Assembly (NCBI GenBank): GCA_002897695.1
Contig: BDTG01000028.1
Location: 7,329 to 71,328 of the forward strand
Direction: 5' to 3'
Length of the DNA stretch: 64,000 bases
Source: a bacterium BMS3Abin14
GTDB taxonomy: Bacteria; BMS3Abin14
Within the stretch, counting starts at the first letter, position 1; each line of letters begins with the position of its first letter. The translations under genes and the position numbers were made by a program. The notes below the pieces were generated by a model. That model saw only the letters and a list, made by a program, of their open reading frames with translations, ran no database searches and had not been told where the DNA came from. Positions 28,151 through 49,431 of this stretch are shown here, piece after piece.

Positions 28151-29425
28151 ATGCACAAAGCGATCAAGGCGATACGCGGCTTCAGCGATGTTCCGACCGA
28201 GGATGCCTGGAAATACACCTATATTGAAAATTGCGCCCGGCGGCATTTTCAGCTGTATGGCTACAGGGAGATACGGCTTCCGGTGCTTGAGTACACCGAA
28301 CTGTTTTCAAGAGGGATCGGCGAGGCCACGGATATTGTTGAAAAGGAAATGTATACTTTCCCCGACCGTAAAGGGAGAAGCCTGACCCTCCGTCCCGAGG
28401 GAACCGCATCCGCGATGCGCGCATACCTGGAAAGGGGATGGCACTCTAACGGGGCTCTCAGTAAACTCTTCTATTCCGGCCCCATGTTCCGGCATGAGAG
28501 GCCGCAGAAGGGCCGGTATCGCCAGTTCTATCAGCTTGGGTTGGAGGCCATCGGCCATGGCGGGCCTTTGGTGGATGCCGAGGTAGTCGACCTTCTGTAC
28601 CGGTTTTTCCTCCGAATGGATGTCCAGGACGTCAGGATCCTCCTTAACAGCCTGGGGTGCGAGGATTGCCGACCCGGGTTCCGTGATAAATTGCTGGTTT
28701 TTCTCGGGTCCGTCTCCGACAGGCTATGCTCAAATTGCAGAAGAAGGACACAGACAAACCCTCTCAGGGTCCTGGATTGCAAGGTGCCGACCTGTCAGGA
28801 GGCTCTAACAGGCGTCCCGGTAATGGTGGATTCTCTTTGCGATGAATGCCGGGACCATTTTTCCGGCGTGTGCCGTACCCTGGACGGTCTTGAAGTGCCT
28901 TACACCGTAGACCCCAGGATCGTTCGCGGCCTGGACTACTACAGCAGGACCGCAATTGAGGCCGTCTGTGACCGTCTGGGTTCCCAGAACGCTGTGGCGG
29001 CCGGCGGGCGATACGATGGCCTGGCTCGGCAGATCGGAGGGGATGTGCCGGGAATCGGGTTTGCCCTGGGTGTTGAACGTCTGAAGCTGATTATGAAATG
29101 GGATTCTCCTGCTCCTCCGGTTCCCGACTATTATCTTGCGGGCGCCACACCCGATGCAAGGATCCCCGTTATGAAATTGGCGGATCAAATCAGGGGATTC
29201 GGGATTCGGGCCGAGGTTGATCTGGAGGAAAGGAGCCTTAAGGCACAGATGAGGCGTGCAAATAGAATGTCGGTACACAAGGTGGTTATCATCGGGGATG
29301 ACGAGCTGTCGAGAGGAACCGTGACGCTGAAAGATTTTTCCAGTAATAAACAGGAGGAGATCTCTCGAGATAATTTTCTCGCTGGACTGATCAGAACCGG
29401 AGAAAACCTGAAAGGAGCGGAGTGA
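28151..29425 (+). CDS. hisS: histidyl-tRNA synthetase
   Basis: Class II motifs (FRHERPQKGRYRQF, GGRYDGL). Internal ATG of ORF 27989. Confidence 0.9.
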   Translation: MHKAIKAIRGFSDVPTEDAWKYTYIENCARRHFQLYGYREIRLPVLEYTELFSRGIGEATDIVEKEMYTFPDRKGRSLTLRPEGTASAMRAYLERGWHSNGALSKLFYSGPMFRHERPQKGRYRQFYQLGLEAIGHGGPLVDAEVVDLLYRFFLRMDVQDVRILLNSLGCEDCRPGFRDKLLVFLGSVSDRLCSNCRRRTQTNPLRVLDCKVPTCQEALTGVPVMVDSLCDECRDHFSGVCRTLDGLEVPYTVDPRIVRGLDYYSRTAIEAVCDRLGSQNAVAAGGRYDGLARQIGGDVPGIGFALGVERLKLIMKWDSPAPPVPDYYLAGATPDARIPVMKLADQIRGFGIRAEVDLEERSLKAQMRRANRMSVHKVVIIGDDELSRGTVTLKDFSSNKQEEISRDNFLAGLIRTGENLKGAE

Positions 29426-31092: not shown

Positions 31093-31215
31093 ACTCACAG
31101 GCAGGGGACTTCGAGTCACGTTTACCTGTCACGTCGCAGCTCAAGTGAAGACCGGCAGCGTGACGAGCGGGCGAGAGAAAAAGGTTTTTATCCGGACTGA
31201 TATTGGGAGGATAAG

Positions 31216-33018
31216 TTGGATACGGGATCAGATGCACTGGACCAGCAGGGTGATTGGGAGCGAACGCACAACTGTGGAACCCTGAAAAAAGATAATATCG
31301 GGAATGAGGTCATCCTCATGGGTTGGGTCCTTCGCAGAAGGGATCACGGCGGGTTGATCTTCGTCGATCTGAGAGACCGGTGGGGCATAACCCAGGTAGT
31401 TTTCAACCCGGAGAGGGAACCTGAATCCCACGGGAAAGCTGAGCGCCTGAGATCCGAATACGTTATCGCCGTCAGGGGTGAGGTGTCTCCAAGACCCGAA
31501 GGCATGGGAAACCCTGGTCTGGTCACGGGAGCGATTGAGGTGCTGGTTGACGAGTTGAGGGTTCTCAACTCCAGTCTGACCCCCCCGTTTTCCCTTGACG
31601 AGCGTGAGGGTGGGGATGTCGCTGAAATCGTCCGCCTCAAGTACCGGTACCTGGCCCTGCGGCGGGACACCCTGAAAAACAATATGATACAGCGTTCCCT
31701 CTTGGCGAAATGGGTCAGGGACTATTTTTACGATGAGGGATTTCTCGAGATAGAGACACCCTTTCTCACAAAAAGCACCCCAGAGGGCGCCAGGGATTAT
31801 CTTGTGCCCAGCAGGGTTAGCCAAGGTAACTTCTACGCACTTCCACAGTCCCCACAGCTTTTCAAACAGATCTTGATGGTAGCCGGGTTCGACCGCTATT
31901 TCCAGATTGTACACTGTTTCAGGGACGAGGACCTGCGTGCGGACCGGCAGCCGGAGTTTACCCAGATCGACGTGGAGATGTCCTTTCCCACGGTTGACAC
32001 CCTGTTCGATATAATGGAGCGGATGATGTCCGGGGTCTTCCGGTTCGCCCTGGACCTGGACATAGCGGGACCCTTTCCACGACTGGGTTATGGGGAGTGC
32101 CTTGACAGGTTTGGACTGGACAGGCCGGACACAAGATTCGGGATGGAGCTGGTTGACCTGACGGAGATCCTTGGCTGTACCGAGGCGAGAGTGTTCTCCG
32201 AAACCGTGGCGGCCGGCGGTATTATCAGAGGGCTGACGGTTAAGGATGGGGGTGGAATGTCCCGCAGAGAGCTCGATGAGCTTACAGCCTATGTGGGGGT
32301 TTACGGGGCAAAAGGGCTGGCCTGGTTCAAGTATTCCGAGAATGGCTGGCAGTCTCCCCTGGCCAAGTTCATCGGTGAGGACGAAAAAGCGCGGGTGTCC
32401 CAAACGGCCATGTTTGAACCGGGCGACCTGCTTCTGGTAGTCGCGGGCGCCTCCGGCATGGTTAACGAGTCGTTGGGGCAGCTGCGGGTCCACCTCGGGA
32501 ACATGCTCGACCTCATACCTGCTGACCGCTACGATTTTCTCTGGGTTACCGATTTCCCCCTTTTCGAATACGACGAGAAGGCGGGCAGGTACAACTCCAT
32601 GCACCACCCGTTCACCTCCCCGGTGGAAGAAGACCTGCCCCTCCTCGAAACGGACCCCGGCCGGGTCAGGGCCAAGGCCTACGACATGGTCCTGAACGGG
32701 TCTGAGATCGGTGGCGGCAGCGTTCGTATTCACCGGCAAGACGTACAGAGCACCGTATTCAAGCACCTGAACATAGGACCTGATGAGGCAAGCGAAAAAT
32801 TCGGATTTCTCCTTGACGCGCTGCAGTACGGCGCCCCTCCTCACGGCGGCATCGCATTCGGTCTGGACCGCATTATGATGATACTGACCGGATCTGCCTC
32901 CATCAGGGACGTCATTCCTTTTCCCAAGACCCAGAAAGCCGCTTGTCTCATGACCGATGCGCCCAACCCTGTTGATCCAACCCAGCTTATGGAACTTGGA
33001 CTGAAGCTGCGCCGGTAA
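31216..33018 (+). CDS. aspS: aspartyl-tRNA synthetase
   Basis: OB fold followed by class II catalytic motifs (FRDEDLRADRQPEFTQ, GGGSVRIH, GLDRIMM). TTG start preceded by GGGAGG. Confidence 0.9.
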   Translation: MDTGSDALDQQGDWERTHNCGTLKKDNIGNEVILMGWVLRRRDHGGLIFVDLRDRWGITQVVFNPEREPESHGKAERLRSEYVIAVRGEVSPRPEGMGNPGLVTGAIEVLVDELRVLNSSLTPPFSLDEREGGDVAEIVRLKYRYLALRRDTLKNNMIQRSLLAKWVRDYFYDEGFLEIETPFLTKSTPEGARDYLVPSRVSQGNFYALPQSPQLFKQILMVAGFDRYFQIVHCFRDEDLRADRQPEFTQIDVEMSFPTVDTLFDIMERMMSGVFRFALDLDIAGPFPRLGYGECLDRFGLDRPDTRFGMELVDLTEILGCTEARVFSETVAAGGIIRGLTVKDGGGMSRRELDELTAYVGVYGAKGLAWFKYSENGWQSPLAKFIGEDEKARVSQTAMFEPGDLLLVVAGASGMVNESLGQLRVHLGNMLDLIPADRYDFLWVTDFPLFEYDEKAGRYNSMHHPFTSPVEEDLPLLETDPGRVRAKAYDMVLNGSEIGGGSVRIHRQDVQSTVFKHLNIGPDEASEKFGFLLDALQYGAPPHGGIAFGLDRIMMILTGSASIRDVIPFPKTQKAACLMTDAPNPVDPTQLMELGLKLRR

Positions 33019-33059
33019 AAATACACACTGACCCGGATGAACCCCACTACCTAAAGTTC

Positions 33060-33107
33060 TTGACACCTGAGGGCTACCCTTATATAGGTATACTGTATAC
33101 AGTATAC
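33060..33107 (+). promoter_or_regulatory. predicted sigma70 promoter (TTGACA -35) followed by triple GTATAC operator (GTATACtGTATACaGTATAC, 20-bp perfect palindrome) upstream of mdh
   Basis: Seen in sequence. The same TTGACA plus tandem GTATAC arrangement recurs upstream of sdhC at 55001-55047. Confidence 0.55.
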
Positions 33108-33240
33108 TGAAGTTGTGCCCATTAAATGATATCTTTCGTTTTCCGTGGAGTAAAAGGCCACGACTGGTTTTTTTGCGGCCTTATCAATAGGTAGTAGTGT
33201 GACAGTAGTGCAAAAAAATCGGCGTCTTGAACAGGTATAA

Positions 33241-34227
<987 letters not shown>

Positions 34228-34260
34228 TTTTTCCGGGGTTTCTTCTATCTAACTGCAGAT

Positions 34261-34305
34261 GGAGGGTCGTCTTCTACTTTCACGGAGGACCCTCCTTCTG
34301 TTTGT
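34261..34305 (+). terminator. hairpin (GGAGGGTC-N19-GACCCTCC) with a T-rich tail after mdh; possible partial terminator or attenuator
   Basis: 8-bp perfect stem seen in sequence. The tail TTCTGTTTGTG is only moderately U-rich. Confidence 0.35.
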
Positions 34306-34376
34306 GAACGCGAAATTCTACTTTTGGAAAAAGATGGAGACCTGTTCGGCGTGATTGGATGCCCGGAGGAAAAACC

Positions 34377-35216
34377 ATGAGAGAGATCGAGGCCCGGCAG
34401 ATAACCCGGGCCGTTAAAGAGCTTTGCATGAATGCGGCTTATCACCTGGGCGATGATGTGGTCGGGGCTATCAGGGAAGGTCTGGAAAAGGAGGCATCTC
34501 CCACCGGCAGGGATGTGTTGAACCAGCTTCTCGAGAATGCGGAGATAGCCTCGGCAGGGGAGTTCCCCCTTTGCCAGGATTGCGGCCTTGCGGTTATCTT
34601 CGTTGAACTTGGCCAGGATGTCCACGTGAGCGGCAGCGACCTCAACGATGCCATCCATGAAGGGGTCAGGCAGGGCTATGGGGAAGCCTATCTCCGAAAG
34701 AGCGTATGTCATCCCTTCACCCGTAAAAATACCGGAGATAACACGCCCTCCATCATCCACGTTAAGATTGTCCCTGGTGAAAAGATCAAGCTGACCATGG
34801 CCGCCAAGGGAGGGGGCAGTGAGAATATGAGCCGGGTCATGATGCTCAAACCTTCCGATGGGAAGGAAGGTATCATGGATTATGTTATCGGGCGGGTAAT
34901 AGAATCAGGCCCCAACCCCTGTCCTCCAACCATCGTCGGTGTTGGAATAGGGGGGACATACGAAAAGGCCGCTCTTATTGCCAAGGAGGCTCTCCTCCGC
35001 CCCGTCGGCCGACCAAGCCCTGACCCGGAACTGGCAGAGATGGAGAAAAAAATTCTCGATGCAGTGAATGGATCCGGCATCGGTCCGGCCGGGCTGGGGG
35101 GCAGGGTGACTTCATTTGCCGTCCACATCGAGATGAACCCCTGTCACATCGCCAGCCTTCCGGTGGCGGTTAATATCAACTGCCATTCCCACCGGCACAA
35201 GGAAACGGTCATCTAA
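34377..35216 (+). CDS. fumA: class I fumarate hydratase, alpha (N-terminal/Fe-S) subunit
   Basis: Fe-S hydro-lyase alpha-type sequence (...FPLCQDCGLAVIFVELGQ...). RBS GGAGG before ATG 34377. Confidence 0.85.
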   Translation: MREIEARQITRAVKELCMNAAYHLGDDVVGAIREGLEKEASPTGRDVLNQLLENAEIASAGEFPLCQDCGLAVIFVELGQDVHVSGSDLNDAIHEGVRQGYGEAYLRKSVCHPFTRKNTGDNTPSIIHVKIVPGEKIKLTMAAKGGGSENMSRVMMLKPSDGKEGIMDYVIGRVIESGPNPCPPTIVGVGIGGTYEKAALIAKEALLRPVGRPSPDPELAEMEKKILDAVNGSGIGPAGLGGRVTSFAVHIEMNPCHIASLPVAVNINCHSHRHKETVI

Positions 35217-35230
35217 GGGAGGTATTGATC

Positions 35231-35788
35231 ATGTCGGAACCTGTTCGGTTGACTCCCCCTCTGTCGGGGGAAGATGTTGAGTTTTTGAAAGCAGGTGACA
35301 GGGTGCTGATCTCCGGTACGATCTACACGGGGCGGGATGCCGCCCATAAGAGGCTTGTGGATCTGTTGGAGAAGGGTGATCCTCTTCCCCTGGAACTGGA
35401 GGGCCAGGTCATCTATTTTGTCGGTCCCTCTCCGAGCAGGCCTGGAAATCCCATCGGTTCTGCCGGCCCGACCACCAGTTACCGTATGGACGCCTATTCT
35501 CCTGTCCTCATAGAGAAGGGGCTGAAAGTAATGATAGGCAAGGGAGCGCGTTCACAGGAAGTTATTGATGCGATGGTACGCTATAAGGCGGTTTATCTTG
35601 CGGCGGTAGGCGGGGCAGCGGCCCTGATATCCCGAAGGATCGAGTCCTGTGAGGTCATCGCCTACGAGGACCTCGGCCCGGAGGCCATTCGAAAGCTGGA
35701 AGTCAGGGATTTTCCCGCTATCGTGGTAAACGACTGCGAGGGAAACGATCTTTACAGGCAGGGTGTGGAAGAGTACAAGACGGCGTAA
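35231..35788 (+). CDS. fumB: class I fumarate hydratase, beta (C-terminal) subunit
   Basis: Fe-S hydro-lyase beta-type ([19 protein letters not shown]...). Alternative TTG start at 35225. Confidence 0.85.
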
Positions 35789-35877
35789 TATTTTTATGGA
35801 AGGGGAAGGCTCGGTGCTACCCCCTATACAGCAGTCGGTCCCCCGGGTGGCGGGATCAGATAGCGGGAGGTCATTGC

Positions 35878-37047
35878 ATGAAGGTCCACGAATACCAGGC
35901 GAAACAGCTTCTTCGGGAATATGGCGTTCCGGTGCCGGACGGGGGGATGGGCAGAACCCCTGCGGAGGCCCGGAAGATAGCCGAAGAATTGGGCGGGAAA
36001 GTCGTTGTAAAGGCTCAGATCCATGCCGGGGGCCGCGGCAAGGCCGGCGGCGTTAAGTTGGTTTCAGGACCCGCGGAGGCCGAGAAGGTGGCTGGGGAGC
36101 TTATAGGCAAAACCCTGATAACCCACCAGACCGGACCCGGGGGGAAGGTTGTCAATCAGATCCTCATCGAGGGAGGGGTTGAGATCGCATCCGAGTTCTA
36201 CCTCGGCATGGCCATCGATCGCGCAACCGAGAGGGTCGCCATCATGGCGAGTACCGAGGGAGGGGTTGAGATCGAGAAAGTAGCGGCCGAAGCCCCTGAG
36301 AAGATCCTCAAGGAATTCGTGGACCCGGCCGTGGGATTGATGCCCTTTCAGGCCAGGAAGATTGCATTCAATCTGGGTTTGACCGGAAAGACTGCGTCTG
36401 CCGCGGCCTCCTTTGTCCTGAAGCTTTACAGACTGTTTATGGACAAGGATTGTTCACTGGCTGAGATCAATCCGCTCATCACCACTGCGACCGGCGAGGT
36501 GATTGCCCTTGACGCAAAGTTGAATTTTGACGACAATGCCCTTTTCCGGCACCCTGATATCGTTGAGCTTCGGGACCTTTCGGAGGAACAGCCGCAGGAG
36601 ACCGAAGCCTCGGAGTACGGGCTCTCCTATATAAAACTGGAGGGCAATGTGGGGTGTATGGTCAACGGTGCGGGCCTAGCCATGTCCACCATGGACATTA
36701 TCAAGCTTGCAGGCGGCGAGCCGGCGAATTTTCTGGATGTGGGCGGAGCGGCCAAGGAGGAATCCGTCACTAATGCCTTCAGGATCATTCTCTCCGATAA
36801 AAATGTTAAGGTTGTCCTCGTCAATATTTTCGGGGGCATCGTCCGTTGCGATATCGTGGCCCAGGGTGTGATCAATGCTGCGAAAAACCTGAACGTGACG
36901 GTCCCTGTCGTCGTCAGGCTCGAGGGCACGAATGCGAAGGAGGGGCTCAGCCTTATTGAAAAATCAGGGATGAAATTTATTACGGCCAAAGGCCTGAAGG
37001 CCGCTGCAGAGCAGGCGGTAGCTGCCGCAAAGAGCGGGGAGGTGTAG
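35878..37047 (+). CDS. sucC: succinyl-CoA synthetase beta subunit
   Basis: [12 protein letters not shown]... with ATP-grasp. Confidence 0.95.
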
Positions 37048-37048
37048 G

Positions 37049-37921
37049 ATGAGCATCCTGGTAAACAGCGATACGAGGGTTGTCGTTCAGGGAATCACGG
37101 GACACGAGGGTAGTTTCCACACAAGGCAGTGCGTAGCCTACGGGACCAAAGTGGTCGCCGGGGTGACGCCTGGAAAGGGCGGCCAGGACGTCGATGGCAT
37201 CCCTGTTTTCAACACGGTATCCCAGGCGGTAGAAAAGGAGGGCGCCGACGCGGCCCTGATTTTCGTTCCACCTGCATTTTGCGCCGACGCTATCCTTGAG
37301 GCGGCTTACGGGGGGGTCGATCTCGTTGTATGTATTACCGAGGGGATTCCCACTCTGGACATGGTCAAGGTGAAAAACGCACTTGGGGCTACGGGTGTGC
37401 GGATGATCGGGCCTAACTGTCCCGGTGTCATGACCCCGGGTCAGTGCAAGATGGGCATCATGCCCGGGTTTATCCATAAGGAGGGGCGCGTTGGCGTTAT
37501 CTCCAGGAGCGGGACCCTGACCTACGAGGCCGTCGGCCAGTTGACGGAGCTTGGCATCGGTCAGAGTACATGCATCGGCATTGGGGGAGACCCCATTATC
37601 GGCAGCACATTTGTTGATCTTTTACGGCTTTTCAACGATGATCCTGATACCGACGCCGTGGTGATGATCGGCGAGATCGGCGGCTCTGCGGAGGAGACCG
37701 CCGCAGACTTTATCAAAAAAGAGATGGGTAAACCGGTTGTGTCGTTCATCGCCGGACAGACTGCCCCTCCCGGGAAGCGGATGGGGCATGCCGGGGCTAT
37801 TATTGCTGGTGGAAAAGGTACTGCCGCCGAAAAGATTGTCAGCCTGGAGGCAGCCGGGGTTACCGTCAGCAGGAGCCCCTCGGAAATTGGCGCCAGGATA
37901 GCTGAAGTCCTTGGCGCCTGA
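37049..37921 (+). CDS. sucD: succinyl-CoA synthetase alpha subunit
   Basis: CoA-binding motif and phosphohistidine loop (...SRSGTLTYE...). Confidence 0.95.
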
Positions 37922-37934
37922 CAGGGAGGAAAGA

Positions 37935-38189
37935 ATGGCCAATATCGCTCCTGACGAGAAGACTGAGGTAGCGCAATATGGTGGGAGAAAAATCACCATA
38001 ATTCCCCGATATTGCAAGGGGTGCGAGATCTGTGTGAAGTTCTGCCCTGCTTCGGTCCTGGAAATGAAAGATTTCAAGGTTCACACAGCTCGCATTGAGG
38101 ACTGTACCGAATGCATGCTCTGTGAGGTGAGATGCCCCGATTTTGCCATTTTTGTAGATGAATCGGGTAAAAAGGGGAAGGCGAAATGA
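37935..38189 (+). CDS. korD: 2-oxoglutarate:ferredoxin oxidoreductase delta subunit (2x[4Fe-4S] ferredoxin)
   Basis: Two CxxCxxC(x)nCP motifs. RBS before ATG 37935; ORF 37911 also possible. Confidence 0.8.
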   Translation: MANIAPDEKTEVAQYGGRKITIIPRYCKGCEICVKFCPASVLEMKDFKVHTARIEDCTECMLCEVRCPDFAIFVDESGKKGKAK

Positions 38190-39319
38190 GCGGCAAGGAC
38201 GTATTTTTTCAAGGTAATGAAGCCTGTGCGCACGGTGCCCTTTATGCCGGCTGCCGTTTTTTCGCCGGCTATCCCATCACCCCATCAACCGAGGTAGCTG
38301 AATTGATGTCACGCTTCCTGCCGAAGCTTGGCGGGGCGTTTATCCAGATGGAGGATGAGATCGCCGCCATGGCGGCCACCATCGGGGGGTCCCTCGCAGG
38401 CAAAAAAAGCCTGACGGCTACCAGTGGTCCCGGTTTTTCCCTCAAACAGGAAAACATCGGGTTCGCATGCATAACGGAGATACCGTGTGTGATCCTGAAT
38501 GTCATGCGAGGCGGCCCCAGCACCGGGCTGCCCACCGGCCCCAGCCAGTCGGACGTCATGCAGGCCAGGTGGGGCACCCATGGGGATCATCCGGTCATCG
38601 CCTTAACCCCCGCCTCCGTTCAGGAGATCTTCACCGAAACGGTGAGGGCTTTCAACCTGGCCGAGAGGCTCAGGACCCCGGTTATCCTTCTCCTCGATGA
38701 GATTATCGGTCACATGAGGGAAAAGATCACTATTCCCCCCGAAGGGGAGCTTGAGATCTGGGACCGTCCCAGGCCAACGTGCAAACCTGAGGAGTATAAA
38801 CCTTACGACATCAGTGAAGGGTTGATTCCGCCCATGGCCGATTTCGGCTCCGGCTACCGCTGGCACACCACCGGCCTGAACCATGATGAAACAGGATTTC
38901 CAACCAACAAGCCCGAATTGGTGGAACCGGAAGCTGAGAGGCTTATGAACAAGATCACCCGCAATCTGGACATCATAGAAAAGTATGACTACCACGAGGC
39001 CAGGGGGGCTAAGGTCGGGATGATGGCCTTCGGTTCCACATCCCGGTCCGCGCGCGCGGCCATCAGAACCCTGGCCGCAGAGGGGATTCCTGTGGAGTTC
39101 CTCAGGCCCGTCACCCTTTGGCCCTTTCCCACGAAGATCATCGAGAAGATGGCCGAAAATGTTGATGCCATAATTGTCCCTGAGATGAATCTCGGCCAGA
39201 TGTCTGAGGAGGTCCAGAGGTGCGCCTGCGGCAAGGCCAGGGTCGTTGGGATTAACAGGGTGGACGGTGATCCGATAACACCCGCGCAGATCATTGACAA
39301 GATCAGGGAGGTGTCGTGA
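38186..39319 (+). CDS. korA: 2-oxoglutarate:ferredoxin oxidoreductase alpha subunit
   Basis: Pyruvate/2-oxoacid:Fd oxidoreductase alpha domain (GYPITPSTE...). Confidence 0.9.
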   Translation: MSGKDVFFQGNEACAHGALYAGCRFFAGYPITPSTEVAELMSRFLPKLGGAFIQMEDEIAAMAATIGGSLAGKKSLTATSGPGFSLKQENIGFACITEIPCVILNVMRGGPSTGLPTGPSQSDVMQARWGTHGDHPVIALTPASVQEIFTETVRAFNLAERLRTPVILLLDEIIGHMREKITIPPEGELEIWDRPRPTCKPEEYKPYDISEGLIPPMADFGSGYRWHTTGLNHDETGFPTNKPELVEPEAERLMNKITRNLDIIEKYDYHEARGAKVGMMAFGSTSRSARAAIRTLAAEGIPVEFLRPVTLWPFPTKIIEKMAENVDAIIVPEMNLGQMSEEVQRCACGKARVVGINRVDGDPITPAQIIDKIREVS

Positions 39320-40137
39320 TGGCATTTAACTACGCGCAATATACCCGGCCGGGCAAGCTTCCCCACATCTGGTGTCCGGGATGCGCCCATGGAATCGTTA
39401 TGAAATCGCTTATCAGGGCCATCGATCGGGTTGGGCTGGATAAGGACAACACCGTTATCGTATCAGGGATAGGCTGCGCTTCAAGGCTTCCCGGCTATGT
39501 CGACTTCAACACTCTGCACACCACCCATGGAAGAGGCCTTGGATTTGCCACGGGAATAAAGATGGCCAATCCGAAGCTTGATGTTATTGTCGTGGGTGGC
39601 GACGGGGATTCCCTCGCCATCGGCGGGAATCATTTTATACACGCCTGCCGAAGGAACATCAACATCACTCTGGTGGTTTTCAACAACTTTATCTACGGCA
39701 TGACAGGAGGTCAATTCTCGCCAACGACCCCCCATGGCAGGCTTGCAAGCACCACACCTTACGGCAATCCTGATTACTCTTTCGACGTGGTGGAGTTGGC
39801 ATCGGGCGCCGGGGCGAGCTTTGTGGGGCGCCATACCGCGTATCATGCCATTCCACTGGAGAGGATGATTGCCGATGCCATCTCCCATAAGGGATTTTCG
39901 GTGGTGGATGCCCTGTGCACGTGCCCGACGACCTACGGACGAAGGAACAAACTGGGAACGGCTGTGGATATGATCGAGTGGTTTAAAAATAATACCGTGG
40001 GCATCAAGGCGGCTGGAAAGCTTCCTCCCGAAAAGGTCGAGGGAAAGATCCTCACCGGCGTGTTTAAAAATATTGAAAAGCCCGAATATTGTATGGAATA
40101 CGAAAACATCAAGGCAAAGGCAGGGAACAGGCCCTGA
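39316..40137 (+). CDS. korB: 2-oxoglutarate:ferredoxin oxidoreductase beta subunit (TPP-binding)
   Basis: TPP motif GDGD...N region (VVGGDGDSLAIGGNHF). Confidence 0.9.
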   Translation: MMAFNYAQYTRPGKLPHIWCPGCAHGIVMKSLIRAIDRVGLDKDNTVIVSGIGCASRLPGYVDFNTLHTTHGRGLGFATGIKMANPKLDVIVVGGDGDSLAIGGNHFIHACRRNINITLVVFNNFIYGMTGGQFSPTTPHGRLASTTPYGNPDYSFDVVELASGAGASFVGRHTAYHAIPLERMIADAISHKGFSVVDALCTCPTTYGRRNKLGTAVDMIEWFKNNTVGIKAAGKLPPEKVEGKILTGVFKNIEKPEYCMEYENIKAKAGNRP

Positions 40138-40152
40138 CCAGGAGGTAATATC

Positions 40153-40689
40153 ATGGCCGACAGGTTCGAGGTAAGACTCAGCGGCGCTGGTGGACAGGGA
40201 TTGATCCTTGGCGGTGTCATCCTTGCGGAGGCCGCATCCCTTTTTGAAGGTAAAAACGCTGTTCAAACCCAGTCCTACGGACCCGAAGCCAGGGGCGGCG
40301 CCAGTAAATCTGAGGTCATCCTCTCGGAAGGAGAGGTCGATTATCCCAAGGCCACGGAGATTGATCTCCTTCTATGCCTTACGCAGGAAGCCTGTGATAA
40401 ATACACCGTCGATCTGAAAGACAATGGTGTTCTTATCACCGATTCCCGCATGGTCCAGGATATTCCCGAAGGGAAATTCAAGGTTTATCAGCTGCCCATA
40501 ATCGATACCGCCAAGGATAAGGTCGGGAAGGTTTTTGTCGCCAACATCGTGGCGCTTGGAGCCATAACCCGCCTGATCGAGCAGGTATCCTTCGATTCGG
40601 TTGAAAAGGCCGTTCTCAACCGGGTGCCGAATGGAACCGAGGACCTGAACAAAAGAGCCCTGAAACTGGGATACGATCTGGTTAATTAA
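40153..40689 (+). CDS. korC: 2-oxoglutarate:ferredoxin oxidoreductase gamma subunit
   Basis: ...LSGAGGQGLILGG... gamma-subunit fold. Confidence 0.85.
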   Translation: MADRFEVRLSGAGGQGLILGGVILAEAASLFEGKNAVQTQSYGPEARGGASKSEVILSEGEVDYPKATEIDLLLCLTQEACDKYTVDLKDNGVLITDSRMVQDIPEGKFKVYQLPIIDTAKDKVGKVFVANIVALGAITRLIEQVSFDSVEKAVLNRVPNGTEDLNKRALKLGYDLVN

Positions 40690-40719
40690 TCAGGCCTGCG
40701 ACGGGGATCAGACGGAGAG

Positions 40720-41510
40720 TTACCTGAACCTTATGTTGTGCTTTTGAACGGCCTTAACCAGATATTCTATCTCGCCGGGATGGAGGATTCCCTTCTTGAC
40801 AAAGAATTCCCCTATGGGCCGCTGGAGCCAACGCTGAAAGCCAAGGACCGCGGAACGCTGGTAGGGAGTCATGTACCCCAGGCGAAGCGCTGAGCCGCCT
40901 ATCCTTTCCCCGAACACTCTTTCCGCTGAGATGATGTGAAGCTCCTCTGAATTAAGAAACTTCCACGTGGCGGCAATATGGCCGAAAGAGGGACGCTGAC
41001 GTCTCTGCCAGGTAATGGCCTTGATAAGGGTTCTCCAGGATATGATCCCGGAGTAGTAAAGGTACTGGCCCAGCAGAAGCCTGTTCTCGGGAACCAGACC
41101 CTGCCAGAAATGGTCATGGGTTTTCCCGCCCGTTTCTGATGCCCTGTTTTCGGCCGGGTCTTCGCGGGGGGTGTTGCGGGGCTGAGGATTCGTCCGGTGA
41201 ACAGTCGTGGATAGGTCCTCCGATGACAGGAAAGCCAGAAGGCTGGAGTAGGCCTGAGTTACTGCTATGAAATGTTCGGCCATCTCATTCTCATCCTTGC
41301 CCTGAATTCTGGCCCTGTCCGGATGAAGCTCCAGAGCCTTTCTCCTGAAGGTGACCTTCAGGCCTGAAGGCCCCAGCGTTCGCAGAAACTCATCGGTCAC
41401 CTCGACATCGGCGCCGAAAAGCACCCTGAATGCCGAAGTGATCTCCCGGGTATTTAACGCGGTATTCAAGGACCAGAACCTCCCTAAGTCTCCAGCTACA
41501 AACAGAAGAA
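40720..41510 (-). CDS. J-domain (DnaJ-like, HPD motif) protein with uncharacterised C-terminal domain; start uncertain
   Basis: KVTFRRKALELHPDRA J-domain core. The upstream part of ORF 40720..41919 looks non-coding (repeat-rich), so a later TTG/GTG start is assumed. Confidence 0.5.
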
Positions 41511-41587
41511 TCGCTTGCAGGCACAAAAGCGACAACCGCAACTTTACAGTGACGCTATTCTGGGTAATAAACGTGCATGTGTCAAGT

Positions 41588-41768
41588 GTCTTGAACGTGG
41601 TCCAATGTCCAATGTCCAACGGGGAAAAGCCGGATGTGGTGACACGGAGACACGGAGAAAAACGAAGAGGGGGGATAAGAGCAGGCGGTGGGCTCGATTT
41701 AACAGGGATGAAGGGGATGAAAACAGGCGATGGGCAGTAAGAGCAAGTTTGTAGTTTGAGGCTTGAGG
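41588..41768. repeat. left imperfect inverted repeat of the island (core GTCTTGAACGTGgtccaATGTCCAATGTCCAACGGGGAAAAG plus second block GCAAGTTTGtAGTTTGAGG)
   Basis: The reverse complement of 49249-49315 aligns (AACGTG...ATGTCCAAyGTCCAACGGGGAA..GCAAGTTTGAGGTTTGAGG). Local micro-tandem repeats (gacacggag x2, atcgaaga x3). Confidence 0.75.
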
Positions 41769-41867
41769 TTAAAATCTGGCACTGAAACCTTGGTGAAACA
41801 GACATGGGAGCAAGGGAGTAAGGGCGTATCGAAGCATCGAAGAATCGAAGAATCTCAAACTCGCCTA

Positions 41868-42360
41868 TATTATGTGACAATTGTCTTGTCCGGTTCGACG
41901 TGGTATGCCTCGATCCCAAAAACGACTTTTAAAAAGGGAGACTTTTGGTGTCGGGCAAGCCCATTAATGTCATTATCGGGGACGGGGAAAATCCCTCGTC
42001 TTTAGGTGAAGGGAAGGATGTGATAACATAATTATGTCAGATATCGATTGAACGTGAGATAGAGATCCTGTCGGGTAAAGTTGGCAGCGACCATGTTCAC
42101 GTTTTTATATCCTGTCGTCCGAGTCATAATATCAGTGTATCAGTCAGGTAGTGCAATGGTTGAAGGGAATCAGTTTCCGGGTGCTTCTTTAAGGAGTTTC
42201 CCCACTTGCGCAAGCAATTTTGGGGTCGTCATTTTTGGGCTCGCGGCTATCTTGCTGTTTCCTCCGGTACCATCACAGATGAGATGATCCAGGAGTATAT
42301 TGAAGAGCAAGAAGGGGAGCCGATTCATGATGACAGTCAATTTCCAGTTGACAACCCTTA
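41868..42360 (+). pseudogene. IS200/IS605-family TnpA (Y1 HuH transposase) remnant in three frames with an in-frame TGA
   Basis: Fragments YIM*QLSCPVRR..., ...EIEILSGKVGSDHVHVFISCRPSHNISV... (HuH) and ...QFWGRHFWARGYLAVSSGTITDEMIQEYIEEQ... are colinear with IS200 TnpA but frameshifted. Confidence 0.75.
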
Positions 42361-42391
42361 AACCCATCGCCTTTTAGGCGAGGAGTATCCA

Positions 42392-42637
42392 GTGGAGTCG
42401 AGGCTGCGGACAAACATGCCTCCAGTGAAAGCGAGCTTTCTTGCTATGACTCAAAACCATGCGAAAGATAACAATCAAATGCAGGCCTCGTTTGCGACTT
42501 TACTGAGTGGGGCGGCTGAGGCCCTTGCAAATTATCTTGACAGGCTATTGCCTTCACTTCTTGATAACTGGTGGAAAAATGCTGTGGTGGACAAGCTGTC
42601 TTTTCAGCAACACCGCGGATCAAACAGAAAGGAATAG
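42392..42637 (+). pseudogene. HEPN-related ORF fragment (frame 2), partial duplicate of the downstream HEPN N-terminus
   Basis: LLPSLLDNWWKNAVVDKLS parallels LLRVLDQNWYQISMKMNLS in the next frame. Confidence 0.35.
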
Positions 42638-43041
42638 TCCACCTCTCATCATTGGATCTTGCTGCCTTGCTTCGGGTGTTGGATCAGAACTGGTACCAGA
42701 TTTCAATGAAGATGAATCTATCCCCGGAAGTTCGCCATTTTGTTAAAGAAATGCAGACAGTTCGCAATCGGTGGGCGCACGCCGGCAGTGAAGGATTTCC
42801 GGTCGACGATGTATACCGTGACTTGGACACCCTGCAACGTTTTGCCACAGTCATTGAGGCGGACGAAGCTCTGCTTCAAGAAGTACGGTGGAGGGTGAGA
42901 CGCAGACATACTACGCATCGCAACTCAAAGCTGAAGACCGGCAGGAAGCCGAGTCCCGATTCTTGCCGTGCGAGGAATTTCATTCCTACCTCACCGCGCT
43001 GCAAATTCGATATCCGGGACTCTCCACGCTCTATTCCTTGA
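42571..43041 (+). pseudogene. Swt1/sacsin-type HEPN domain ORF (R-N-x3-H motif RNRWAH), frameshifted into the SNF2 helicase gene
   Basis: HEPN Rx4-6H motif and helical pattern. The last 50 codons are Arg-rich out-of-frame translation of the helicase 5' region. Frame 0 has a stop at 42855. Confidence 0.5.
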
Positions 43042-45851
43042 ATGCCGCACGAGCCGATTTTATCCCCTATCAGTTCCGGCCCGTCTTGCGGTTTATCAGA
43101 TCAGACCGTCCTCGATTGCTGGTCGCCGATGGCGTGGGCGTCGGCAAGACAATCGAAGCGGGTCTGATTCTCCGAGAACTGCAGGCACGACGAGATATAC
43201 GCTCGATCCTCATCATATGCCCTCGCCCTCTTGTTACCGAGCGTAAGTGGCAGATTGAGATGAAGCGGTTTGAAGAGCGTTTTATTCATCTTGACGGTGG
43301 GACGCTCAGGTATTGCATAAACGAAATGGATTTGGAAGGAACCTGGCCAGAGCAGCACCAGCGAGTCATCATCCCATATTCCTTATTCGACGAAGTCCTT
43401 CTCTATGGCTCGGGCTCTGACGGCAAACGAAAGTGCAAAAAGGGGTTGTTGGATTTGGACCCACCCCCTCGCTTCGATCTGGTTATCGTGGATGAGGCGC
43501 ACCACATCCGGAATCAGGATACGTTCAGCCACAAAGCCGTGCGGTTTTTCTGTGACCATGCGGAAGCCGTGGTCTTTCTGACAGCGACGCCGATTCAACT
43601 TGGCAGCCATGACCTCTTTGTTTTGCTGAACACCCTCCGCCCCGACCTTATTATCGACCAAGAGAGCTTTGAGCACATGTCAGAGCCGAATCCGTTTATA
43701 AACCAAGCGGTCGCATTGGCGCGTGCCCAGGAACCGGACTGGACGACCCAGGCCAATGAAGCTCTCGATCAGGCTGCTGGGACACCCTGGGGACAATCGA
43801 TTCTTAAACATAATCCTGAATTCAACCGCATACATACTCTAATTTCGAAAGGCAAAATCGGATTGGAGGAGCGTGTACAGCTGATTACCGACCTCGAGGC
43901 GTTACATACCTTCTCCGGGATAATCAATCGAACGCGACGCCGCGATATCGGGGAGTTCACGATCCGAAATCCGGAAACCGTGGTTGTTGAATTTACCCCC
44001 CCCCAAAAAGAGCTTCATGACGAACTGATTCAAGTCCAGGCGGAGATATTCAGCAGACTTCATGGGGATGTTAACGTCAAGTTCATGATGACAACAATTA
44101 GACGTCAGGCTGCGAGCTGCCTTTTCGGCCTCGCCCCTTTCCTTGACGAAATTCTCAACCGGCATCTTGATGAATTATCATGGGAGGAGGCCGACAACAC
44201 CGAACCAGTTCCACAAAGCGACATCATCGATAGCATCGAATCACGAATTAAAACCATCCTTGAGAAGGCGCGTGCTCTCGATCCGAATGACCCCAAGCTT
44301 GACGCTCTCCGTAAAGTCATAAGAGACAAGCAGGGTCTGCCAAACAACAAAGTGATGCTTTTTAGCAGTTTTCGGCACACGCTTCACTATCTCTATGAAC
44401 ATCTGAACGCAGATAGTTTTCGGGTTGGAATGATTCATGGCGGCACACCTGACGAGGACCGTGTCGATCTTCGTAACCGCTTTGAGATGCAGCGAGATCA
44501 GGATAACGGTCTCGACGTTCTTCTGTTTTCCGAGATCGGTTGTGAAGGCTTGGACTACCAGTTCTGTGATTGCATTGTGAACTATGACCTGCCCTGGAAT
44601 CCGATGCGGATTGAGCAGAGAATAGGACGAATTGACCGCTGGGGGCAGAAAAGTGAAAAGGTGGCTATCTTCAATATGATTACGCCAGGGACTGTGGACG
44701 CGGACATCTATGAACGCTGTCTGGTTCGCATAGGAGTGTTCAATAATGCCCTGGGCGGTAGTGAAGAGATACTTGGTGAAATCAGTCGAGAAATTCGTAA
44801 TATTGCGGATAACTTCTCTCTGAGTGAAGCTGAGCGCGGAGAGCAGTTCCAACAATTAGCGGACAATAAGATCAGGCTAATACAAGAACAGGATGACCTC
44901 GAGCAGAAACAACTTGAGCTATTCGGCATCCGTCTTCCTCAAGACCAAATGAAGCGGGAAATCGAACAGGCGTCGAGTTTCTGGCTGTCTCCCTCTTCAA
45001 TACGAAGGCTCATAACGATTTACCTTCAGCGGGTTTGCGGAAAGGAACAGGAGTTCATACTCGGCGAGAAAGCACTGAAAACGCTTCGGCTTTCGCAAGA
45101 ATCAAGGAGTAGTGTACTACGGGATTTTCAAAGACTACCCCGCCAGAACACGTCCGCGTATCGAGAATGGGAAAACTGGTTGAAGGGTGGCAACCCTCAT
45201 CTTCTAATGACCTTCGAGTCCGAGTGCGCTTCGCACCACCCTGAGGCCGTTTTCATTATGCCCCTCCATCCCTTGGTAAAACAGGCGGCCATGGCATTCG
45301 ATGCCAGAAAGCGCGTATTTACAGCCCTGAAGGTTAACAGCAATGATGTCCCGAAAGGCAGATACGAATTCGCCATCTTCCAATGGCAGTTCCATGGCGT
45401 TAGGGAGGATTTGGTCTTGCGGCCTGTTGCTTCCTCGGACGTGGTGACCGAACACCTTCCAGGTCTTGTTGAGAAAGCGGAAGGAGATCCCACTGGAAGG
45501 ATCGACGTCGCAGATCCCGCCATTTGGGATGGTCTGGATGCGCAGCATCACAGGCTGTGGTCTGAAGCACGCAAAAACCATCAACGAAAGACCCAGGAAC
45601 TGGCTGAATACCGGAGGGAGAGTTTGACAACGAGCCACAGAGCCCGGATCTCACTTCTTGAAGAACAACTGGGTCAAGCGAGTAATGACAAAATCAGGCG
45701 GATGCGCCAAGCTCAAATTGCAGCGGCTGAAGCGGATTACGCGCGTCGCATTCAAGAATTGGATATTGCTATGGAACGGGCCGATATTACCGCCCAACCG
45801 GTGGCGTATGGGGTAATCCACATCGATGGAGGGTTGTCGGATGCCGAGTGA
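42888..45851 (+). CDS. SNF2/Rad54-family superfamily-2 helicase (DEAH), about 350-aa C-terminal region of unknown function
   Basis: Motif I DGVGVGKT, II VIVDEAHHIRN, III FLTATPIQ, V LFSEIGCEGLDY, VI QRIGRIDRWGQ. GTG start; possibly originally fused to the upstream HEPN. Confidence 0.85.
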   Translation: MEGETQTYYASQLKAEDRQEAESRFLPCEEFHSYLTALQIRYPGLSTLYSLNAARADFIPYQFRPVLRFIRSDRPRLLVADGVGVGKTIEAGLILRELQARRDIRSILIICPRPLVTERKWQIEMKRFEERFIHLDGGTLRYCINEMDLEGTWPEQHQRVIIPYSLFDEVLLYGSGSDGKRKCKKGLLDLDPPPRFDLVIVDEAHHIRNQDTFSHKAVRFFCDHAEAVVFLTATPIQLGSHDLFVLLNTLRPDLIIDQESFEHMSEPNPFINQAVALARAQEPDWTTQANEALDQAAGTPWGQSILKHNPEFNRIHTLISKGKIGLEERVQLITDLEALHTFSGIINRTRRRDIGEFTIRNPETVVVEFTPPQKELHDELIQVQAEIFSRLHGDVNVKFMMTTIRRQAASCLFGLAPFLDEILNRHLDELSWEEADNTEPVPQSDIIDSIESRIKTILEKARALDPNDPKLDALRKVIRDKQGLPNNKVMLFSSFRHTLHYLYEHLNADSFRVGMIHGGTPDEDRVDLRNRFEMQRDQDNGLDVLLFSEIGCEGLDYQFCDCIVNYDLPWNPMRIEQRIGRIDRWGQKSEKVAIFNMITPGTVDADIYERCLVRIGVFNNALGGSEEILGEISREIRNIADNFSLSEAERGEQFQQLADNKIRLIQEQDDLEQKQLELFGIRLPQDQMKREIEQASSFWLSPSSIRRLITIYLQRVCGKEQEFILGEKALKTLRLSQESRSSVLRDFQRLPRQNTSAYREWENWLKGGNPHLLMTFESECASHHPEAVFIMPLHPLVKQAAMAFDARKRVFTALKVNSNDVPKGRYEFAIFQWQFHGVREDLVLRPVASSDVVTEHLPGLVEKAEGDPTGRIDVADPAIWDGLDAQHHRLWSEARKNHQRKTQELAEYRRESLTTSHRARISLLEEQLGQASNDKIRRMRQAQIAAAEADYARRIQELDIAMERADITAQPVAYGVIHIDGGLSDAE

Positions 45852-48800
45852 CTACGAACAGATTTGCAAGGATAATATTCGCCGTCGTGGTGAGGAATTT
45901 GACGACATAGGTCAGCTCATATCAGAACAACTCCACAGTGATCGCACACATTTTATCTACGAGCTTCTTCAAAACGCTGAAGATGCACTAGGGCGTCGCA
46001 AGCGAAACAATCCAGAAAGTGAATTGCCCACCAACGTTAAGTTTCTTCTCTATAAAGATAGAATGGAATTTAGACACTTCGGGGAAAACTTTAACATAGA
46101 AGATGTAAAAGGCATTTCAAACGTTCTTAAAGGCACCAAGTCCGAAGATAAGACTCAAATTGGAAAATTTGGCATAGGATTTAAGTCAGTATATGCATTT
46201 ACTTCAACACCAGAAATTCACTCTGGAGCCGAACATTTTATTATCGAACGATATATTCGACCTCGAAGCGCTGATAAATTTCCACAAATAGCCAGCGGAG
46301 AGACAACCTTTGTTTTCCCCTTCAATCATAAAGACCTTTCAAAAGAACAAGCATTTCAGCTCATAGAAGAGAAGCTGAAAAAGATTGGTTCCCGCATCTT
46401 ACTTTTCCTGGGTAACATAACGGAAATTAAATGGAAAATTGAAGACCAAGATGAAGGACTATATCTTAAAGAATCAAAACAGCAAGGCCAGTTCGCCCAA
46501 AAGGTTACTGTGATAGGACAGCACGGAAATGAAAATGAAGAAGAGGAGTGGCTTGTTTTCAGACGACAGATTGAGGCTGGGAATTCATCTTTTGAGAGTT
46601 TTGTTGAAGTAGCATTCAGATTAAAAAATGATGTAAAATTAGAAAGAGAAATTATACAGAAAATTGAATCTTCTCCATTGATTGTTTATTTCCCCACAAA
46701 ACTTGAGACGCGTTTTGGTTTTTTTGTTCATGGTCCTTATGACACTACTGCTTCGCGTTCGGACATTGAAAATAACGAATGGAATAGAAGACTAATCATC
46801 GAAACGGCAGATCTTTTAACCGAAATAGTCTTGCCTTGGTTAAAGGAAAATAGGTTATTAACTCCCAGTTTTCTTGAGGCTCTACCAATCAGACTCGATG
46901 TATTTCCACAAGATAGCTTATTTCGGCCAATATATGAAAAGGTGCGGGGTGCACTAAGAAATCAAGATTTTCTTCCGACAACAGATGGTAATTACGTTGC
47001 CGGGAAGCGTGCAGTGCTCGCTCGCGCTGAAGACCTTGTGAACTTAATGAGCTCGGAACAACTTTCCTTCCTATTAAGCAAATCGATAAAATTAGAATGG
47101 CTTACAACAGATATAACGGAAAATAAAAAAGATATCCATCGATATTTAGTTGGTTGGAAGCCAGGCTACTACGATACTGGAGAGGAGACAGAATCACTTA
47201 TTGTTGCTGAGATTCGCCCACAAGATTTAATTGAAAAACTTACGTCTGATTTCCTAGAGGCGCAAAGTATCACCTGGCTACTTAAATTTTATGCTTTTTG
47301 TGAAAAACGCCCCACACTTATTGACAAGTTAAAAAATAAACCTGTTGTTCGTCTCGAAGAAGGTCCTTATGTTATTCCATTCAAGCAAGACGGTTCTCCT
47401 AATGCTTACTTGCCACCTGAAAACGATACAGAGTTTCCAGTGGTGTCCAGAAAAATATCTAAAGATGAAAAGGCGCTTGAATTCCTCAAGAAATTAGGGC
47501 TCACAAAGCCTGATGCAGTTGCTGAAGTGATAGAACATGTTCTTCCCAAATACAGGCAATCTAATCCTGATATCTCAGATGATGAACATCGCCAGGACAT
47601 AAAAAAAATCCTAAAGGCTTACGAAACTGACTCTCAAAAAAAGAAGAGAAGACTGATAGAACAGTTACAGGCAACGGAGTTTATTTTTACGGAAACACCC
47701 GGCATAGAAACGACCAGTTTCAGAAGGCCAATTGACGCGTATTTCTGGAGTAATGAGTTGGAAGCATACTTTTCTGGCAGCAACACAGTTGGTTTCGTTA
47801 GGCCAGAATTTTATAATCAGTCCGTCTTGGCGGTTTTCGAAGATCTGGGAGTCACTGATAAGATACGAATACGATGTAAGTCAAAAAATGGTTCAGTGGA
47901 TTACATGCAGCTTGAATATAAGAATTGGCATAGGCGTGGGCTAAGAGGTTTTGATCCAGATATTCAAATAGACGGAATCCAATATGCCATAAAGAATCCA
48001 TCAGGTGAAAAGAGCAAAATCATTTGGAACGAAGTAGCGGTAAAGTACAGTCATTGCATTAAGGGCAAAATTATAAGATCAAGCCGGCAAGATTTTTCAC
48101 TGAATGCAAGCGTCTACGAAGAAGAGGAATTAACGTCAAATTTTGGCCGATTATTGATGGACACCCCTTGGCTGCCAGATAAGCAAGACAACTTTCATAA
48201 ACCCGCTGAACTCAAGCTCGACGATCTACCGGAATCATTTGTTCGTGATGAAAAACCGGTCAACCAGTTAGGTATGAAGAAAGATGTTGTCGCTAAACTT
48301 GCGGAAGAAGCAGGTATTTCATTAGATAATATCGAAAAGGCCAAGAAAATTGCTGAAGCCTCTCCAGAAGTCAAAGAACAAATTGACTTATTGCTCTCTA
48401 ATTCCAACGAAAAACAGCCGGAATTCCCCCGAAAAGCCTCATCGAATGTTGACCGCCGCAGAAAAAAAACAACTGAAAAATACCATAAGGCACCCAAAAA
48501 GAAATATGAAAAGAAACCTTACAGTAAAAAGGTTACTGAAAATACTATAGATCCCAAAATTTGGCTGAGAGAAACATATACGAACAAAGAAAGGCAGATG
48601 ATTTGCCAAATATGCCAGAATGAAATGCCCTTCAAAAAGAAGGATAGCCAGTATTATTTTGAAGCCGTCGAATTATTGAATGATTTTGATCGCGAGATGG
48701 AAGAGTTTTATATTGCCCTGTGCCCCCTATGTGCGGCTATGTATAACGAATTTGTGAAACATGACAAAGGTGCCATGGAGCCTTTGAAAAACGCGTTGAT

Positions 48801-48912
48801 AAATTCGGACGACGCTGAAGTCCCGCTGCAGCTTGGAGAGCTGGACACAAGTGTCCGGTTTGTCGAGACCCATTATCACGATATACAGACTATTCTCGAG
48901 GAGCGAAAATAA
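45841..48912 (+). CDS. sacsin/Hsp90-like GHKL ATPase domain protein (1028 aa) with C-terminal CxxC-N35-CxxC zinc ribbon
   Basis: N-box IYELLQNAEDA and G2-box IGKFGIGFKSVYAF at the N-terminus. Long mixed middle region. C-terminal CQICQN...CPLCAAMY. Start overlaps the helicase stop (ATGccgagTGA). Confidence 0.8.
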   Translation: MPSDYEQICKDNIRRRGEEFDDIGQLISEQLHSDRTHFIYELLQNAEDALGRRKRNNPESELPTNVKFLLYKDRMEFRHFGENFNIEDVKGISNVLKGTKSEDKTQIGKFGIGFKSVYAFTSTPEIHSGAEHFIIERYIRPRSADKFPQIASGETTFVFPFNHKDLSKEQAFQLIEEKLKKIGSRILLFLGNITEIKWKIEDQDEGLYLKESKQQGQFAQKVTVIGQHGNENEEEEWLVFRRQIEAGNSSFESFVEVAFRLKNDVKLEREIIQKIESSPLIVYFPTKLETRFGFFVHGPYDTTASRSDIENNEWNRRLIIETADLLTEIVLPWLKENRLLTPSFLEALPIRLDVFPQDSLFRPIYEKVRGALRNQDFLPTTDGNYVAGKRAVLARAEDLVNLMSSEQLSFLLSKSIKLEWLTTDITENKKDIHRYLVGWKPGYYDTGEETESLIVAEIRPQDLIEKLTSDFLEAQSITWLLKFYAFCEKRPTLIDKLKNKPVVRLEEGPYVIPFKQDGSPNAYLPPENDTEFPVVSRKISKDEKALEFLKKLGLTKPDAVAEVIEHVLPKYRQSNPDISDDEHRQDIKKILKAYETDSQKKKRRLIEQLQATEFIFTETPGIETTSFRRPIDAYFWSNELEAYFSGSNTVGFVRPEFYNQSVLAVFEDLGVTDKIRIRCKSKNGSVDYMQLEYKNWHRRGLRGFDPDIQIDGIQYAIKNPSGEKSKIIWNEVAVKYSHCIKGKIIRSSRQDFSLNASVYEEEELTSNFGRLLMDTPWLPDKQDNFHKPAELKLDDLPESFVRDEKPVNQLGMKKDVVAKLAEEAGISLDNIEKAKKIAEASPEVKEQIDLLLSNSNEKQPEFPRKASSNVDRRRKKTTEKYHKAPKKKYEKKPYSKKVTENTIDPKIWLRETYTNKERQMICQICQNEMPFKKKDSQYYFEAVELLNDFDREMEEFYIALCPLCAAMYNEFVKHDKGAMEPLKNALINSDDAEVPLQLGELDTSVRFVETHYHDIQTILEERK

Positions 48913-49248
48913 GTTCGCTCGGTGGCCATTGCGAGCAATTCTCTACATGCGTAGGCCTAATTTTACTGCCAGATATCAAGCGAAGACTGAGGCAATTGTT
49001 CGGGCCGGAACGGCTTCAAGACAGGGTGAGTCATGATGTTTGAAGCCGCGTCGGGCCTATGCAGCTCCCCCCAAATGAAAGATCAAGAGGCTCGGCGGAA
49101 TCTGGAACCCGAGACGAAAGCTTCGAGGAAGCCCTTGTGTCAGAGACAGTTAAGGCAATGGGACGTGTATGGGAGCATTGAGGTAACGAAGTGTTATCTA
49201 TGTCCTGAACTAAAAGTGTTGCCCCTGTCCTGATTGCTCCCCCGCATC

Positions 49249-49315
49249 CCTCAAACCTCAAACTTGCCCTTCCCCGTTGGACGTTGGACATTCTTTCTCA
49301 CGTTGAACGTTGGAC
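49249..49315. repeat. right imperfect inverted repeat of the island
   Basis: Reverse complement matches 41588-41629 and 41743-41768. Confidence 0.75.
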
Positions 49316-49431
49316 TTAATGGTAGTTCCCCGACTTTCGGAACAATGTGGTGTTTTTGCCACACATTATCCTTGTTGAGATACTCCTAAATGATATAATC
49401 TCCAGCAATCTGCCAATAAAAATGTGTATCC

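Follow-up and report, generated by a model that had tools for sequence, protein, structure and literature searches.

The window, by which is meant the whole 64,000-nt stretch of DNA that was analysed, contains a mobile-looking island in which a transposase remnant, a helicase gene in pieces and an intact ATPase gene follow one another. The features discussed below are located as follows:

41588-49337, no strand assigned: 7.75-kb island consisting of an IS200 remnant, the broken helicase gene and the ATPase gene; absent from the conspecific contig L007
about 42030-42361, plus strand: decayed IS200-like Y1 transposase remnant, covering Pfam Y1_Tnp positions 88-121
42392-42637, plus strand: N-terminal remnant ORF in frame 2, annotated as the hypothetical protein GBE15163.1 (81 aa) in the source MAG
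42571-43041, plus strand: HEPN ORF in frame 1, starting at GTG 42571
42613-42616, plus strand: lesion 1, a G>C change at 42613 and the loss of one T between 42615 and 42616, relative to four conspecific contigs
42616-42887, plus strand: C-terminal two thirds of the Swt1-like HEPN domain (residues 58-148), in frame 1
42887-42888, plus strand: lesion 2, the clean junction of a 205-nt deletion (68 codons plus 1 nt); the missing segment corresponds to positions 14704-14908 of the conspecific contig L005
42888-43041, plus strand: out-of-frame helicase tail of the frame-1 ORF, 51 codons, with its stop TGA at 43039-43041
42888-45851, plus strand: remnant ORF of a SNF2 (RapA/DrmD-like) helicase, 987 aa, in frame 0, annotated as 'RapA' (GBE15164.1)
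45841-48912, plus strand: intact sacsin-like GHKL ATPase gene, 1023 aa (Pfam SACS, NCBIfam P_loop_sacsin, PADLOC TmtA-like)

The island has a GC content of 46%, as opposed to 55% in its flanks, and in L007 it is missing as a whole, with about 57 nt in its place. Inside the island ends, imperfect inverted repeats are found at 41604-41626 and 49270-49292 (23 nt, 96%), together with a second imperfect pair at 41739-41768 and 49242-49271 (30 nt, 80%). The inverted-repeat core AATGTCCAACGGGGAA occurs at these two places only within the window, and the repeats may represent the ends of a mobile element. The Y1 transposase remnant is truncated at its N-terminus and carries two internal frame changes. 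As it is identical in L005, its decay predates the lesions of the helicase gene. Between the kor operon and the island, the minus strand encodes a 248-aa protein (40720-41466) with a weak, sub-cut-off match to the MshE-type c-di-GMP-binding motif. The 399-aa extension upstream of this protein in the ORF list is probably unreal; gene callers give 249 aa in the sister contigs.

The ORFs and their frames, the Rx4H motif, the TGA at 42855 and the GTG at 42888, all reported in a preliminary description of this DNA, were confirmed by the ORF list and by three-frame translation. The frame-2 ORF starts either at GTG 42392, which is preceded by AGGAG, or at ATG 42446, the start used in the homologue P0004. 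It corresponds to residues 1-57 of a HEPN-SNF2 protein, which comprise the first Swt1-like HEPN helices, and ends with seven out-of-frame codons followed by TAG at 42635-42637. The frame-1 ORF contains the Rx4H (Rx4-6H catalytic) motif RNRWAH at 42763-42780, whose R and H are invariant in 41 homologues, and the last 50 or so of its codons had rightly been taken for the 5' end of the helicase gene read out of frame (51 codons at 42888-43041). Frame 0 is closed by TGA at 42855-42857, after which GTG 42888 is the next start-type codon. This GTG is the native Val217 codon and not the native start, and the ORF that it opens represents residues 217-1203 of the intact protein, including the Walker A motif GVGKT (43137-43151) and the DEAH motif (43491-43502). 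No Shine-Dalgarno sequence lies upstream of either GTG 42571 or GTG 42888, and scans for promoters and terminators around the lesions returned nothing exceeding shuffled expectation.

The HEPN domain is not encoded in one uninterrupted frame. The frame-1 ORF alone matches Pfam HEPN_Swt1 (PF18731) with an E-value of 2.3e-15 at profile positions 45-114 of 115. When frame 2 is joined to frame 1 at about 42616, the match extends over positions 7-114 of 115 and the score rises from 57 to 68 bits; the frame-1 ORF (57.3 bits) and the joined translation (68 bits) both exceed the PF18731 cut-off, a gathering score of 27.5. Profile positions 7-44 thereby fall in frame 2 and positions 45-114 in frame 1, and owing to this collinear cover the frame-2 ORF can be assigned to the N-terminal part of the same HEPN domain. 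It had previously been regarded as a second HEPN fragment that arose by duplication and subsequently decayed, but proves to be the N-terminal half of the one domain, cut off by lesion 1. A local duplication of the HEPN helix is ruled out, as the two ORFs map to consecutive positions of the profile and of the protein and the helices concerned are single-copy in intact homologues. In fact, the look-alike helices LLPSLxDNWW... and LLRVLDQNWY... occur once each per intact homologue (in P0004: ...LLPSLFDNWWKDAVVDKLSFQQQRR...LLRVLDQNWYKTSTKLNLT...). Since both are present in every intact homologue, their resemblance is a built-in feature of the HEPN domain.

Conspecific contigs, located by exact match to the window's KorA protein, reveal the intact state of the gene. 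Here, L005 carries an uninterrupted ORF of 1203 or 1221 aa, and the intact product is a Swt1-like HEPN plus SNF2 protein of 1203 aa. The DNA identity between L005 and the window amounts to 99.94% over 28186-42887 (14.7 kb) and to 99.75% over 42888-47989 (5.1 kb). A tblastn comparison of the L005 protein with the window recovers residues 1-62, 53-148 and 217-1203 as collinear segments in three successive frames with 92-99.8% identity; this amounts to 92-96% for the HEPN pieces and to 99.8% for the helicase ORF (residues 217-1203). Apart from one 90-nt patch the helicase remnant is identical to L005, and the break is therefore recent. The patch (44687-44777) contains 12 SNPs relative to L005, 10 of which are synonymous, and resembles a short stretch of another allele brought in by recombination, or else a consensus of mixed strains.

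A homologue search with the conceptually repaired protein as the query gave a consistent picture beyond the species. Each of the best 120 homologues is a single protein that is 1145-1210 aa long and combines PF18731, SNF2 and Helicase_C, and the family members outside the window are single ORFs of 1145-1221 aa. Alignment to these homologues and to L005, in which HEPN and SNF2 form one ORF, bears out the proposal of a single ancestral HEPN-SNF2 polypeptide that is broken here. Where the family has a single ORF (about 1150-1220 aa, with HEPN, SNF2 and Helicase_C), the window gene is distributed over three ORFs in three frames. The 987-aa ORF falls in the 90%-identity cluster of P0001, and its product is recorded as an exact sequence from one contig only.

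The break postulated in the preliminary description is present in the window sequence, but it consists of two lesions (42613-42616, and between 42887 and 42888) instead of one. At lesion 1 the window has CAACACCG-CGGATC, whereas L005, L006, L008 and L081 have CAACAGCGTCGGATC; the window sequence across the lesion is CAACACCGCGGATC. Located at codon 57/58, the lesion changes the reading frame midway through the HEPN domain, before the catalytic motif is reached. At the boundary between HEPN and helicase, a 1-nt indel at 42860-42890 had been suspected; this candidate was rejected, as the DNA alignment shows a 205-nt gap placed exactly between 42887 and 42888. The junction is formed by GAAGTACG on the left and GTGGAGGG on the right and displays no microhomology. 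Over the roughly 20 kb compared, the 1-nt gap and the 205-nt segment are the only indels relative to L005.

Lesion 2 takes out RATKTSLLAKNMPVPVQGEAVKDKPSQDTVKPSAEFEPGQIVILKSNPAIRGAVVTVIPGQPENRFMVF, corresponding to residues of about 149-216. Lost with them are the tail of the final HEPN helix, the disordered linker that follows and the opening predicted strands of a small EFEPGQIV...NRFMVF domain. In the AlphaFold model of the homologue P0005, HEPN residues 4-145 are confidently helical, residues 146-180 are disordered and three low-confidence strands follow; the full-length model is poor (mean pLDDT 52), and the HEPN residues 4-145 are its only trustworthy part. The deletion thus eliminates the linker together with most of a small domain that is predicted, with low confidence, to be beta-rich.

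The conspecific contigs also document further states of the locus. An IS3-like element, whose rve DDE transposase is encoded on the minus strand, has inserted into the gene in L008 (8368-8462) and L081 (5031-6029). The insertion follows ...GTGATACCCGGCC, at a point 25 nt before the right-hand end of the segment deleted in the window, and leaves a 230-aa HEPN-only ORF in which the HEPN domain is whole. L008, which has RKRWAH in place of RNRWAH, belongs to a sequencing run of PRJDB5792, the BioProject that covers the BMS cores and the window's MAG. The population thus includes intact (L005), IS-broken (L008, L081), double-lesion (window) and island-free (L007) states. Descent of the window's deletion from the IS allele is disfavoured, as the window differs from L005 by 8 mismatches in 14.7 kb and from L008 and L081 by 16-17 mismatches in 4.8-8.2 kb, with the RKRWAH variant of L008 as a further difference.

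The locus is best explained, with a probability of roughly 0.78, as one HEPN-SNF2 gene recently broken by two mutations, and hence as an ordinary strain-specific pseudogene within a non-functional module of a mobile defence island. The ancestral protein of about 1203 aa would have comprised a Swt1-like HEPN domain (a predicted RNase), a linker, a small predicted beta-rich domain and a RapA/DrmD-like SNF2 helicase, and its gene would have been co-transcribed with that of the sacsin-like GHKL ATPase, giving a two-gene module typical of defence islands. The G>C change and the 1-nt deletion at 42613-42616 would have split the HEPN domain, and the out-of-frame deletion of 205 nt between 42887 and 42888 would have removed the linker and most of the small domain. 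Efficient translation would then probably be limited to an N-terminal peptide of 63-81 aa. Neither the half of HEPN with the active site nor the 987-aa helicase remnant has a ribosome-binding site, and both would, judging from the sequence, be essentially silent; the module is for this reason presumed to be non-functional. The downstream ATPase may still be made via its own Shine-Dalgarno sequence (GGAGG). The loss of function would be very recent, and the horizontally acquired island appears to be in flux in this population. The locus should be better annotated as a pseudogene than as 'RapA' plus a hypothetical protein.

Both lesions are probably real mutations. It is unlikely that the organism has an intact 1203-aa gene and that the 1-nt and 205-nt gaps arose when a mixture of strains was assembled. 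The contig that contains the window was assembled from a metagenome and belongs to the MAG 'bacterium BMS3Abin14'; for the BMS3 MAGs, SPAdes and MetaBAT were applied to Illumina MiSeq PE300 reads (PMC6759336). An exact search of genome and metagenome collections found neither junction elsewhere, so that both lesions rest on one assembly, and they lie within 275 nt of each other, about one MiSeq read length. Furthermore, the locus is assembly-prone: L006 stops 85 nt short of the deletion, a switch to IS sequence within the 205-nt segment is seen in L008 and L081, and L008 breaks off 95 nt into that segment. With 70-90% conservation over many taxa, the gene behaves as an inter-genome repeat, and the 90-nt SNP patch of the helicase hints at mixed alleles. 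However, single-base indels are rare in Illumina MiSeq/SPAdes data, lesion 1 is a compound of substitution and deletion and not a homopolymer error, and the comparison of about 20 kb with L005 yielded no further indels. The 205-nt junction offers no repeat or microhomology at which an assembly graph could collapse and contains no Ns, and the conspecific contigs display other real disruptions of the same gene. Programmed recoding, in which two successive -1 ribosomal frameshifts would restore the fusion protein, had been put forward as an alternative to a broken gene. The frame changes do share one direction (2 to 1 to 0), but this reading is now ruled out and its probability is close to nil: neither 42560-42640 in frame 2 nor 42840-43041 in frame 1 contains a slippery X XXY YYZ heptamer, no Rfam frameshift element is found, the conspecific contigs (99.6-99.9% identity) and the homologues stay in one frame at both sites, and the rebuilt product would still fall short of 68 residues.

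A functional remodelling, in which the HEPN effector has been removed and an internally initiated 987-aa helicase still works with the sacsin-like ATPase, is very unlikely. It is consistent with the intact helicase and ATPase ORFs, with the clustering of both indels in the 5' 500 nt of the gene and with the existence of about 20 natural relatives that lack the HEPN domain. Those relatives, however, begin at an EFxPGQIV motif (e.g., L038, L043, L049, L054 and L055), about 35-40 residues upstream of the window's GTG, and thereby retain the small domain, most of which is missing from the window. GTG 42888 has neither a Shine-Dalgarno sequence nor a promoter-like site, and translational coupling is not expected, as the frame-2 stop lies 250 nt upstream of it; moreover, the 987-aa product is on record from a single contig. 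A related proposal holds that the multiple allele states reflect recurrent selection against a costly HEPN-SNF2 plus ATPase immune module, with the window representing a 'disarmed' allele whose helicase remnant and ATPase retain some role. This is quite unlikely; if true, the locus would provide a natural allele series in which to examine what it costs to carry a defence module that is uncharacterised and has been transferred very widely. The earlier suggestion that a toxic HEPN moiety was counter-selected while the helicase/ATPase pair stayed intact is at most weakly supported, for the helicase ORF lacks its native start, about 216 N-terminal residues and a Shine-Dalgarno sequence. Since the IS allele keeps HEPN whole, turnover or cost of the whole module fits better than selection against HEPN specifically, and that allele points to loss of the whole system.

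Among 72 related genome loci, few are frameshifted, and at positions that differ from those of the window. Single frameshifts at scattered sites of the orthologous helicase gene are seen in L046 (8656), L062 (about 11260), L068 (9477 and about 10030) and L054 (about 10800), which may be real pseudogenes or long-read errors.

The partner gene encodes an ATPase that matches Pfam SACS with an E-value of 2.4e-13 and whose nearest solved structures are sacsin repeat domains. Its GC content is 39.7%. The ORF overlaps the helicase stop by 11 nt, as is the case in homologous loci (L001-L004). Its start is most likely ATG 45841, with GGAGG 8 nt upstream, in preference to the ATG 45826 of the ORF list; no record exists of the exact sequence of the version from either start.

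The HEPN_Swt1-SNF2 family to which the gene belongs (the P0001 cluster, named 'helicase-related protein' in Thermodesulfobacteriota MAGs) is uncharacterised and is paired with a SACS-domain ATPase, as in the window; in contrast to the family, the window gene is spread over three frames and is without residues of about 149-216. Several known systems resemble parts of the module. The best PADLOC match of the helicase is DrmD of the DISARM system (PDLC02623), which scores 398 bits with the intact P0004 and 385 bits with the window ORF. DrmD is also the best NCBIfam match, but at 315.8 bits P0004 remains below the equivalog cut-off of 610. The island contains no DrmA, DrmB, DrmC or methylase genes, the HEPN domain lies outside the DISARM DrmD models, and no PADLOC model matched the N-terminal 216 residues. 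RapA/HepA proteins represent the nearest solved structures by sequence (PDB, E of about 5e-33), whereas the NCBIfam RapA score of 175 bits lies below the cut-off of 576. RapA also has no HEPN fusion, while the window gene is located in a mobile, low-GC island together with a sacsin-like ATPase.

The ATPase, in turn, resembles TmtA of the Tiamat system (E-value 3.1e-67) in its sacsin-type GHKL ATP-binding domain, with a match limited to positions 27-808 of the 1302 in the TmtA profile, i.e., the N-terminal 60% or so; the PADLOC model has no curated cut-off. Tiamat is described as a single-gene system, whereas the ATPase here is paired with a SNF2 helicase in nearly all of the 72 loci. The Hhe system (HEPN-helicase-Vsr) follows the same logic as the window family, as a Swt1/Abi2-type HEPN domain is fused to a helicase; its helicase, however, is from another superfamily and is joined to a Vsr nuclease. 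Among the PADLOC matches, no HheA model was found. A HEPN-Vsr-DUF3320 architecture has been listed previously (PMC3710099). A literature search found no paper on the pair of HEPN-SNF2 protein and sacsin-like ATPase. Inferred from its parts, the intact module may act in phage or plasmid defence, with the helicase as a putative sensor or translocase, the HEPN RNase as the candidate effector and the GHKL ATPase as their partner.

As a recently broken copy from a gene family whose domain architecture is already on record, the window gene itself carries little weight. Its context is of more value: the module of Swt1-HEPN-SNF2 protein and sacsin/TmtA-like ATPase is not covered as a system by any PADLOC model, is 70-90% identical across many phyla and shows several independent loss states in one uncultured species. 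The 72 loci (L009-L080) come from species-representative genomes of many phyla, among them Thermodesulfobacteriota, Nitrospirota, Bacillota, Bacteroidota, Acidobacteriota, Chloroflexota, Poribacteria and others. Across these loci helicase identity ranges from 57 to 93% and is mostly 70-85%. The sacsin-like ATPase comes next in almost every case, with an identity of mostly only 25-50%. A very conserved and widely transferred helicase motor is thus coupled with a fast-diverging ATPase partner. The HEPN-less relatives include many from sponge-associated lineages, and some of them have small antitoxin-like ORFs just upstream.
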